Positions 12,001 through 15,000 of a DNA stretch of 64,000 nucleotides are shown piece by piece. Location: the NCBI RefSeq assembly GCF_050920415.1, contig NZ_CP169310.1; one strand, 5' to 3'. Positions within the stretch are counted from its first letter, which is position 1, and every line of letters starts with the position of its first letter. The DNA is from Escherichia coli. GTDB lineage: Bacteria; Pseudomonadota; Gammaproteobacteria; Enterobacterales; Enterobacteriaceae. Position numbers: made by a program.

Positions 12001-15000
12001 AAAACCAAAATCAGCTAGGCCTAGTTTACCAGAAGCAATAATTGGACCATATTTTAGTAGAGCCTTTTTATAATCTTCAATATTAGGGGGAATTAAAATT
12101 GTATGACAACAACTATCTTCAGGAGAAAAACCATACCCCAATCTATTTCTTTTGAACTTCCCTTTTAAAATCGTACTAGGTATACTATATTTTTCACAAT
12201 ACCAGTTAATCAGTGCATCCTGACAATACCACCCACAGTTCAGGTCAACAAAACCACCAATTCCCGGACGCCACTGATGCTTCATGTTTACTTTATAAAC
12301 AAAATCCATAAATCTCCTGTAGTTTTGTAATTTTAGAACTTTCTCAACAATCCCTTCGTTGTATTAAAATACTGTACCAGTATATTTCATGTATTTTAGA
12401 TTGTTACCAGTGTAGTAGTCAATAAAAATGCTTATTTTTCATATATCTATTTTAACAATAATACTACGTTATAATTATAAAGCCTTAGCACTATAATATT
12501 CAACCAGCAGCAACCATTTTACTTGTCGGCATCAGAAAATCATATAAAATAGCCTGTTTGATAATCCAGCCCCGGGAGAGTTCCAGTTTGGGGGCCATCT
12601 GGTAGATGCACGGTAATTACTTTTGTTGCTATTTCATCCCGCCATGCAGCAGCAGAGGATTCGACCATATTATGGGAAAGGACATCACCGCGTTCGAGTT
12701 GCTGACGTCCCTGCCTCAACCAGGTCACGGAACCAGGTATTATGCTGCCGTTCAACGGTCTGGCGCATAAAATCCCGGATTAACCGAGAGCCATTACGGT
12801 CCATGCTTTTTTCAGAGGCCATAAAAGCATCCTTCAGGAGAGCATGAAAAACCCTAGGGCAGTCACTGAATGAGGGACCAGCAGCGGTTTTAGTGCCCTA
12901 AATCGTACGTTTTCGTCCGGTTCCCCCTCAAACCCCATGTTCAAGTTAGAATTGTGGACAGGCGGCCAAGAACTTCGTTCATGATAGTCTCAGGAACCCG
13001 TTCGAGTCGTTTTCCGCCTCGGGCTTTCATATCAATTGTCCGGGGTTGATCGCAACGCACAACTCCTGTGGTATGTATACCAACACCATCCAACGACACA
13101 GCAAAGCCGGCAGTGCGGGCAAAATTGCCTCCGCTGGTTACGGGAACAACAACAGGCAGGCGGGTCACACGATTAAAGGCCGCCGGTGTGACAATCAGCA
13201 CCGGCCGCGTTCCCTGCTGCTCATGACCTGCGGTAGGATCAAGCGAGACAAGCCAAATTTCCCCTCTTTCCAAGTCAGATTTCCTCCTGACCAGTCGCCG
13301 GTGCATCCAGCCATTCTCGTTCTTCAGCTGATATTTCAGCATTCGGATCACACTGTGCCAGTAGCTCAGCCAGTGAATATTGCGGGCGTCTGTGCGGCTC
13401 AACAATCAGCCGGCCATTATCAATGACCATGCCAACTTCATTATCTGTACCCAGAGACAGAGCATTCAGCAGTGCCGGTGGGACGGTCAGCATAACTGAG
13501 CCGCCAACCTTCTTCAGTCGGGTGGTATGCATTCTTCACCTCCATAAAAGTTATATTTAAATATAACATCCACTAAAAAAACACACCAGGCTTTAACGCG
13601 CAATGTTTAATAAAAATATAACTTTCAACCAAACAGTAAAACCAGCGTGGTTGCTTCCATATGCAGCAATACCAGCAGCAGGCCACCACTTCTGATCCTG
13701 GCCGCTGATGTAATCAACCCCACTAGGAACAGTTCTGCCAGTGTCAGCAGGTTCTGATACTGGCGGTGCGCGGCGACGAACAACAACGACGTTATCAGCG
13801 CCCCCAGCCACATCGTCCAGCACCAGCAGTACTGAAGGGGCCGCTTGGAATTCGGAAATTTTCCCACGTTAAAGGGGCTGCCTGTCAGATCTTTTCCGGT
13901 GACCATTGTTCGACACGTGGCCACAATCTCAGATCCCGGAATCAATCCGGCATATTCCGGTGCTTAACTTTGCCTCCAGTGACGCGGCGACGGAAGCCGG
14001 CCTTGTGATGACGGTGTTTACCGTTGCTCTGATGTTCAGTGCAGGGAAATTATTAACCCGTTTCTGTTCCGAAGATTTTTTCACAGTATTCTACACCTGT
14101 CATCTGGCTGTGCTGGGAATTCTGGCGTTGTGGCTGGTATGATACTGACGCTGATTCTGATTATTAATAAACAACATAACACAGGATATTTATGAAAATT
14201 ACGGATCACAAACTCTCTGAAGGTATTGCCCTGACATTTCGTATTCCTGAAGGAAATATAAAACATCCTTTGATTATCTTATGCCATGGATTTTGTGGCA
14301 TCCGGAATGTTCTGCTCCCTTGCTTTGCGAATGCCTTCACAGAAGCAGGATTTGCAACGATTACTTTTGATTATCGTGGATTCGGTCAGAGTGAGGGAGA
14401 ACGAGGCCGTCTGGTTCCTGCAATGCAGACCGAAGATATTATTTCAGTTATCAATTGGGCAGAAAAGCAGGCATGTATTGATAATCAGCGTATTGGGTTA
14501 TGGGGTACATCGCTGGGAGGGGGTCATGTGTTCAGTGCAGCTGCGCAGGATCAACGCGTACAATGTATTGTCAGCCAGCTAGCTTTTGCTGACGGTGATG
14601 TTCTGGTTACCGGAGACATGAATGAATCGGAGAGAGCTTCTTTTCTGTCCACGCTGAATAAAATGGCAGAGAAGAAGAAAAACACCGGGAAAGAGATGTT
14701 TGTGGGGGTTACACGGGTCCTAAGTGATGATGAATCGAAGGTATTCTTCGAGAAAATCAAAGCCCAGCATCCCGAAATGGATATAAAAATACCTTTCCTT
14801 ACTGTCATGGAAACGTTGCAATATAAACCGGCAGAGAGTGCAGCCAGAGTTCAGTGCCCTGTTTTGGTTGTTATTGCAGGTCAGGATAACGTGAATCCGC
14901 CGGAACAGGGAAGAGCATTATATGATGCTGTTGCTTCTAGTACTAAGGAATTATACGAGGAAGCTGACGCATGCCATTATGATATTTATGAGGGCGCGTT

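Follow-up and report, generated by a model that had tools for sequence, protein, structure and literature searches.

The locus described here, which lies in the 64-kb stretch of E. coli DNA that was analysed as a whole (the window), is very probably the classical pemIK/parD (Kis-Kid) type II toxin-antitoxin addiction operon of IncF plasmids, now 26.8 kb away from repA1 through an old separation that proceeded in several steps. Module, operator and mechanism are all already known, and public records contain the sequence with annotations for pemI and pemK. The sole unusual detail of the locus, which is mildly interesting, is that the toxin gene begins with a TTG codon, a rare start that is specific to one clade of plasmids, where it occurs together with an R67H substitution in the toxin. 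The features of the locus and its surroundings are collected in Table 1, for which plasmid pCFSAN004181P (NZ_CP012499.1; 224 kb; 99.99% identical to the window) served as the annotation reference for the replicon genes.

Table 1 Features of the pemIK block, the IncFII replicon and the interval between them (window positions).
Feature	Position	Strand	Basis or remark
pemK (kid) toxin gene	12941-13273	minus	110-aa form, TTG start; Pfam PF02452 PemK_toxin
pemI (kis) antitoxin gene	13275-13532	minus	85 aa, ATG start; Pfam PF04014 MazE_antitoxin
pemI Shine-Dalgarno GGAGG	13539-13543	minus	sequence reading; same as in R100
Operator region I, perfect 18-bp palindrome GTTATATTTAAATATAAC	13550-13567		overlaps the -10 element; inside the exact R1 region I 30-mer
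Operator region II, 18-bp pseudo-palindrome GTTATATTTTTATTAAAC	13605-13622	minus	exact match to R1 region II
CPBP (CAAX-protease family) gene, 3' remnant	13625-13822	minus	5' part missing; precedes pemI in R100
traX 3' fragment (last ~180 bp)	13953-14142	plus	head-to-head with the CPBP remnant, 13823-13952 between them
Alpha/beta hydrolase gene (UilS-family lactonase match)	14192-15052	plus	NCBIfam NF047920, 506.8 bits (cutoff 400)
IS1-family element	18238-19002		9-bp direct repeat TGCGGACAG on both sides (18229-18237, 19003-19011)
IS110-family transposase gene	19868-20872	minus	NCBIfam NF033542, 343.9 bits
IS630-family transposase gene	25791-26822	plus	NCBIfam NF033545, 256.7 bits
Complete Tn3-family transposon	32474-36290		53-nt terminal inverted repeats, 96% complementary
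Tn3-family resolvase	32521-33111		
Tn3-family transposase	33272-36256		NCBIfam transpos_Tn3, 1193 bits
IncFII basic replicon including ori region	39528-41933	minus	collinear with R100 at 88.7%
repA1	40380-41237	minus	NCBIfam incFII_RepA, 588.6 bits; NZ_CP012499.1 annotation
tap	41230-41304	minus	NZ_CP012499.1 annotation
CopA RNA	41322-41410	plus	Rfam CopA, 87.3 bits
copB/repA2 (CopB-type regulator)	41548-41796	minus	NZ_CP012499.1 annotation

The antitoxin gene stands upstream of the toxin gene, and the start codon of pemK lies one base past the TGA stop of pemI. A Pfam search matched PemK to PF02452 with 102.3 bits over positions 1-109 of 109, and PemI to PF04014 with 29.9 bits (cutoff 24.7). 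When compared with protein chains of known structure, the window toxin matched Kid with an E-value of 8e-69, against about 1e-8 for MazF chains; it is identical to the Kid crystal-structure chain 1M1F (110 aa; also 2C06) at 109 of 110 residues, R67H being the sole difference. The accession of the PemI protein (WP_000557618.1) is the same throughout the clade and in the nearest outgroup. The Kid residues H17, R73 and D75 are all present in the PemK translation, and H17 is one that we take to belong to the catalytic residues of Kid. R73 and D75 are catalytic as well, with roles described previously (PMC3879964). Relative to R100, pemK has accumulated 12 synonymous changes and one non-synonymous internal change.

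Public annotation of pemK is inconsistent: older records give a 133-aa open reading frame (12941-13342) that starts inside pemI, current RefSeq gives a 110-aa pemK-mt, and two records annotate pemI only. The correct toxin gene is the 110-aa form with the TTG start, not the 133-aa frame of some annotations. A second copy of pemIK was considered and rejected; each record has the 64-bp pemI/pemK junction a single time, despite a match at '2 places' in the closest records, and a BLAST search of the window against itself for additional pemIK returned only short, weak matches of the flanks. Divergence from the nearest outgroup was 0.4% in pemI, 3.9% in pemK and 2.8% in the CPBP remnant plus operator (Fisher p 0.04). 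A recombination breakpoint at the pemI/pemK boundary was not adopted as the explanation, because conserved pemI and operator sequences would account for these values no less well.

The position of the module relative to the replicon was then compared with that in R100. There, pemI begins 1,685 bp after the repA stop, just downstream of the basic replicon as the initial annotation had stated, and the 1,685 bp consist of ori and a CPBP-family gene. The corresponding distance in the window is 26,848 bp (27,755 bp from the palindrome to CopA), in agreement with the roughly 27 kb reported earlier. Thus, the contiguous repA-ori-CPBP-pemI-pemK array of R100 and R1 is not found in the window, which has this 26,848-bp gap and a truncated CPBP gene, while pemIK and repA still share a strand and follow the order seen in R100. 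The minus strand of the window is collinear with R100 through tra, finO and the replicon down to 39528, a point equivalent to 90 bp before the R100 CPBP gene, and three hypothetical genes adjoin ori. Homology to R100 resumes at 13822, within the 3' third of CPBP, and continues through pemIK to 12868; R100 bases 12519-13062 (L003; about 543 bp) have no counterpart in the window.

The interval between the two blocks had been described as filled by IS elements and a transposon, and this was borne out when its elements were verified on the window's own open reading frames: it holds IS1, IS110 and IS630 elements together with a complete Tn3-family element. Its cargo also includes a PqaA-family gene, higBA and an autotransporter of 1,272 aa that carries an S6 peptidase annotation. 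The IS1 element has kept an intact target duplication, and an empty site for it was found in plasmid pla1 of strain KS167_9B; the intact duplication indicates that the interval is still changing.

We examined how widely this arrangement is distributed, using as a probe for the TTG allele a 64-mer across the pemI/pemK junction, from which R100 differs at the start base only. The TTG-bearing 64-mer was matched exactly by 10 of 2,913 PLSDB records and by 17 of 2,024 records drawn from 5,426 complete E. coli genomes, and all exact carriers are plasmids of 167-242 kb. The remaining records differ from the 64-mer by one to three bases, and the differing base was checked in R100 and two outgroups. 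The junction between CPBP and the traX fragment was found in nine PLSDB records, and the repA allele of the window (at least 97.9% identity over 2 kb) in 10, so that the TTG allele, this junction and the repA allele mark essentially the same ~10 large plasmids. Every clade member has the two loci, pemIK and this allele of repA, on a single plasmid and in the same orientation. The distance between the two is ~10 kb in p1RM9088, 14.6 kb in pRHB35-C09_2, ~27 kb in the window as well as in three CFSAN plasmids, and 28-31 kb in four plasmids from Japanese 'Escherichia sp.'; both ends of the interval are constant, and its middle is IS-rich and variable. Because the layout is common to the whole clade with an interval of 10-31 kb, the separation must be old and multi-step, and the separated layout is ancestral to the clade rather than a private event of the window plasmid.

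Such separation is common among IncF plasmids, and the window represents an ordinary mosaic. A probe covering the 3' end of R100 repA, ori, CPBP and pemI was matched over at least 80% of its length in at least 2,528 PLSDB records, and pemIK was present in 4,110; at this probe's sensitivity, a large minority of the pemIK-bearing records therefore lacks contiguity of the module with an R100-like ori segment. The module itself is among the commonest and most conserved plasmid toxin-antitoxin systems (PMC7326226).

How the two blocks came to lie apart can be read in two ways. To call pemIK displaced, as the initial annotation did, is accurate as a description of the map (26.8 kb), but the history that the word implies, in which insertions pushed the module away, may be wrong. 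We weakly and tentatively prefer a reading in which the pem block is what remains of a different F-like backbone and was captured in a mosaic plasmid. It draws on the foreign neighbourhood of the block, on the genes downstream of ori and on a pemK allele with no close relative in PLSDB. The truncated CPBP gene abuts not an IS end but a traX fragment and hydrolase gene of a different tra lineage. This block (13953-15076) is 92% identical to the R100 traX end plus hydrolase; the hydrolase gene, which lies between traX and finO in R100, is inverted in the window and adjoins the pem block. Since identity between the traX fragment and the resident traX (45231-45968) reaches only 80% and the resident traX-finO junction has no hydrolase gene, the pem block appears to sit among relics of a second F-like backbone. 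The two diverging genes, both truncated at their 5' ends, would be the expected trace if an ancestor resembling R100 had undergone a traX-CPBP inversion.

The competing history, simple insertional displacement, holds that pemIK was once next to the same repA1 and was pushed 27 kb away by IS elements, the transposon and cargo, with deletion of the 5' half of CPBP. It is possible but somewhat less probable. The shared strand and R100 order of pemIK and repA speak for it, as do the nearest outgroups, in which repA is 1.7-3.8 kb upstream of pemI, and ongoing insertion is demonstrated by the IS1 target duplication and the empty site in the sister plasmid. That clade members keep both blocks on one plasmid, in one orientation and with a variable middle, fits an original linkage equally well. 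On the other hand, besides the foreign DNA at the CPBP truncation, the R100 homology of the replicon stops at 39528, a boundary common to many plasmids, and the resident genes beyond it match those beside ori in plasmids that have no CPBP-pemIK at that position. Furthermore, the pemK allele of the clade differs by 3.8% from all others in PLSDB (next best match 96.2%). A cointegration with a 69-kb plasmid resembling pla2 as the source of repA was rejected: in strain KS167_9B the ori-downstream segment is found on this separate plasmid, pla2, but pla2 shares only 38138-40013 with the window and has a different repA, and pla1 of the same strain (215 kb) itself carries the window repA allele, 29 kb from pemIK. 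Whether captured as a relic, as we prefer, or displaced, the pem block with its truncated CPBP and traX fragment-hydrolase neighbour is a compact marker for one large E. coli plasmid lineage.

The start codon of the toxin gene was compared with that of R100, in which the pemI/pemK junction reads TGAC-ATG-GAAAGAGGG; that of the window reads TGAC-TTG-GAAAGAGGG. The TTG of the window, which the initial annotation had pointed out, thus aligns exactly with the ATG of R100 pemK and differs from it by a single A-to-T change. The canonical ATG of R100, the nearest outgroups and presumably the majority of other alleles is not found in the window, and we regard this as an allele difference rather than as the loss of anything that defines the family. 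All four clade members whose sequences were checked have both TTG and R67H, and one of them also has R89G, whereas the two nearest outgroup plasmids have an ATG start and R67. A literature search on the TTG allele, and on residues 67 and 89 of Kid, returned nothing specific to them.

Bacteria do use TTG as a start codon (table 11), and by start-codon strength it would be expected to lower toxin output. The GGAGG nine bases before the pemK start and the coupling junction are unchanged relative to R100, so pemK is probably still translated, through coupling and the same GGAGG, and likely at a lower rate. A change in mRNA structure caused by the A-to-T mutation was rejected, because the local folding energies are nearly equal for TTG and ATG (-14.5 and -14.4 kcal/mol); both folds are weaker than those of shuffled sequences.

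Two further readings of this allele were weighed, and we consider both unlikely. In the first, the TTG/R67H pemK is a version of the gene selected for an attenuated toxin rather than a product of drift, fixed in one lineage of 167-242 kb plasmids that have several toxin-antitoxin modules; we offer this as speculation. If it were true, with toxin translated at a lower rate in relation to antitoxin, the Kis:Kid ratio would change, and with it operator occupancy and the strength with which plasmid-free cells are killed, and the locus would be a natural example of start-codon tuning of an addiction module.

The second, which we judge less likely still, is that pemK is, in effect, dead or else strongly attenuated, TTG yielding little or no PemK, and that the locus is kept as a PemI-only 'anti-addiction' gene or is a decaying remnant made redundant by other modules. 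The change from ATG to TTG is confined to the clade and could cut toxin synthesis enough to end killing; the clade-specific non-synonymous changes (R67H throughout, R89G in a single member) could reflect relaxed selection on the toxin. In addition, the window holds three other toxin-antitoxin modules (a ParE/RelE-type pair, HigBA and hok/sok), and pipelines disagree over pemK to the point that two records have pemI alone. However, the pemK frame is intact in all sampled clade members, with no frameshifts or stop codons; TTG is a legitimate start whose GGAGG and coupling geometry are those of R100; the local mRNA folds alike in both alleles; and R73, D75 and H17 are kept, while residue 67 falls at a non-conserved place in a by-eye alignment with E. 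coli MazF. A translated pemK is the reading that we prefer. The rare TTG allele would offer a cheap system for studying the effects of toxin translation rate in a Kis-Kid-type module.

The regulatory region upstream of pemI was compared with the parD operator of plasmid R1. In R1, hydroxyl-radical footprinting showed that Kis and Kis-Kid protect two 18-bp elements, regions I and II, and leave the spacer between them unprotected (Monti et al. 2007, PMC1865072). The first of these overlaps the -10 element, is perfectly palindromic and was studied as the 30-mer GGATGTTATATTTAAATATAACTTTTATGG; the sequence of region II is GTTATATTTTTATTAAAC (PMC1865072). The perfect 18-bp palindrome that had been reported upstream of pemI in the window was found as described. 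It lies within an exact copy of the 30-mer GGATGTTATATTTAAATATAACTTTTATGG on the minus strand, flanks included, and is accompanied by an exact copy of region II at the same distance as in R100. Judged by this base-for-base agreement, the palindrome is the known parD operator, as the initial annotation had supposed, and no new footprinting is needed. Between the CPBP stop and the pemI ATG, the window is one base off R100, with C for T at 13600; this lone difference from R100 and R1 falls in the 37-bp spacer between the two 18-mers (13568-13604). Both regions are invariant in the seven plasmids compared, among which the spacer is variable, and the operator sites are unchanged even among plasmids whose flanks diverge by 3-4%.

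A chance AT-rich inverted repeat, or a non-regulatory part of some other element, is a reading of GTTATATTTAAATATAAC for which its AT-richness and an empty consensus promoter scan could be cited, but the comparison with R1 rules it out with near certainty, the palindrome and its flanks being the exact footprinted operator with a second site at R100 spacing, and the 18-mer having a single match in the 64-kb window even at three mismatches (0.07 on average in shuffled sequences) and staying constant where the flanks of other plasmids have diverged.

The scan in question, for sigma-70 consensus elements across 12700-13900, returned no promoter; the parD promoter is of the extended -10 type, which lies outside the tool's criteria. 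As a result, the promoter is assigned through its identity with the mapped R1 promoter alone. The span first reported for the locus (12941-13567) does cover the module and region I, but its end omits region II (13605-13622) and the spacer that bears the -35 element, so that the full regulatory unit reaches 13622 rather than 13567.

The mechanism of the module has been established for R1 and R100, and near-identity suggests that it would operate likewise in the window. PemI dimers would bind both 18-bp operator sites, region I of which overlaps the -10 element, and PemK, which would not itself bind DNA, would strengthen repression when toxin and antitoxin are about equal in amount. PemK would act as an RNase that PemI neutralises, and in plasmid-free segregants the decay of the labile antitoxin would leave the toxin to arrest growth. 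Both operator sites, the pemI ribosome-binding site, the one-base coupling junction and residues H17, R73 and D75 are intact in the window.

Among known systems, pemIK of R100 (NR1; NC_002134) shares with the window the gene order, the one-base junction, regions I and II and the Shine-Dalgarno sequence. PemI is identical at 83 of 85 residues (changes R8K and Y47H), PemK at 109 of 110 after the start codon, and the DNA at 96.5% across 12868-13822 (955 bp). Unlike R100, the window has TTG in place of ATG, R67H in PemK, the two PemI changes and the base change at 13600; its CPBP gene is truncated and its repA is 26.8 kb rather than 1.7 kb away. Downstream of pemK, R100 has a DUF262 gene, whereas the genes at that place in the window are unrelated. 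The parD (kis-kid) system of R1 (PMC1865072; PDB 1M1F) agrees exactly in the region I 30-mer and the region II 18-mer, and its 110-aa Kid is identical to PemK at 109 of 110 residues; the spacer reads GTGCGTT in the R1 oligonucleotide and GCGCGTT in the window, and the start codon and R67H differ as well. The chromosomal mazEF and chpBIK loci of E. coli belong to the same PemK/MazF superfamily, with the same toxin fold and the same operon logic of antitoxin followed by toxin; in contrast to the R1 and R100 systems, their similarity to the window module is only distant and their operator is different, and the window module is plasmid-borne.

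Compared with the nearest outgroup plasmid, the segment at 12868-13822 of the window, which carries the pemIK genes, their operator and the 3' remnant of the CPBP gene, has diverged unevenly along its length. The pemI gene differs by 0.4% and the pemK gene by 3.9%; divergence is 2.8% in the region holding the CPBP remnant and the operator (13533-13822), and just two differences were found across 13275-13600. The evidence for unevenness is weak (Fisher p = 0.04). Such a pattern could have arisen because pemI and the operator are strongly constrained, or because the segment is mosaic in origin.

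Among the changes in PemK, R67H (codon 67, 13073-13075) was present in all sampled members of the TTG clade, the roughly ten large plasmids sharing the TTG start of pemK, and in none of the outgroups, while one member, p1RM9088, additionally carries R89G at codon 89. A literature search on PemK residues 67 and 89 found nothing for either. The annotation of this same pemK sequence (12941-13342, minus strand) is inconsistent across public records: some give a 133-aa pemK whose ATG start is located within pemI, others a 110-aa pemK-mt with the TTG start, and two PLSDB records annotate pemI alone. The 133-aa call also occurs in some records of the outgroups bearing the ATG start. Next to these genes, the CPBP remnant has a 3-bp in-frame deletion in the region 13672-13674 relative to R100 and the outgroups. 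The approximately 130 bp between this remnant and the traX fragment (13823-13952) match neither of the two R100 genes, and their first ~50 bp are confined to a nine-record clade.

Three further addiction modules, the RelE/ParE-family toxin with its partner, HigBA and hok/sok, lie within the window, and pemIK is thus one of at least four. Matches to Rfam at gathering level include isrN (155 bits) and three antisense RNAs of plasmids (AS-pc02, AS-traI, AS-traG). Extra copies of the terminal repeat of the Tn3-family transposon were found immediately outside it (36606-36868), and one arm pair there resembles a miniature Tn3-derived inverted-repeat element.

Features located in the window around the pemIK genes
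Feature	Position	Strand	Database match
tssB and tssC, type VI secretion sheath genes (left edge)	1-1374	-	
RelE/ParE-family toxin and partner	6024-6546	-	
RNA matches	9067-9209, 44190-44372, 48815-48891, 59604-59689	+ (all)	Rfam, gathering level
Alpha/beta hydrolase gene, adjoining the pem block	14192-15052	+	NCBIfam NF047920, 506.8 bits (cutoff 400)
HigBA	22936-23507	-	
S6-peptidase autotransporter, 1,272 aa (inside the pemIK-repA interval)	27584-31402	-	
Inverted-repeat arm pair, 48 nt each, 162 nt apart	36611-36658 and 36821-36868		
hok/sok	42080-42374	-	Rfam sok, 86.5 bits

At the place corresponding to the autotransporter, the 215-kb sister plasmid pla1 carries katP. The lineage looks like one of large virulence-type plasmids, with isolates from cattle, food and humans.

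The family matched by the hydrolase product is named 'UilS family quorum-quenching N-acyl-homoserine lactonase'. Directly past this gene, the stretch 15071-16566 shows 88-93% identity to positions 2441-4153 of pla2, a 69-kb plasmid, where the matching segment lies near lldP. This likeness is a further sign of exchange between co-resident plasmids. In R100, a homologue of the hydrolase gene is situated between traX and finO; in the window, by contrast, the gene is inverted and relocated, and the resident traX-finO junction is without it.
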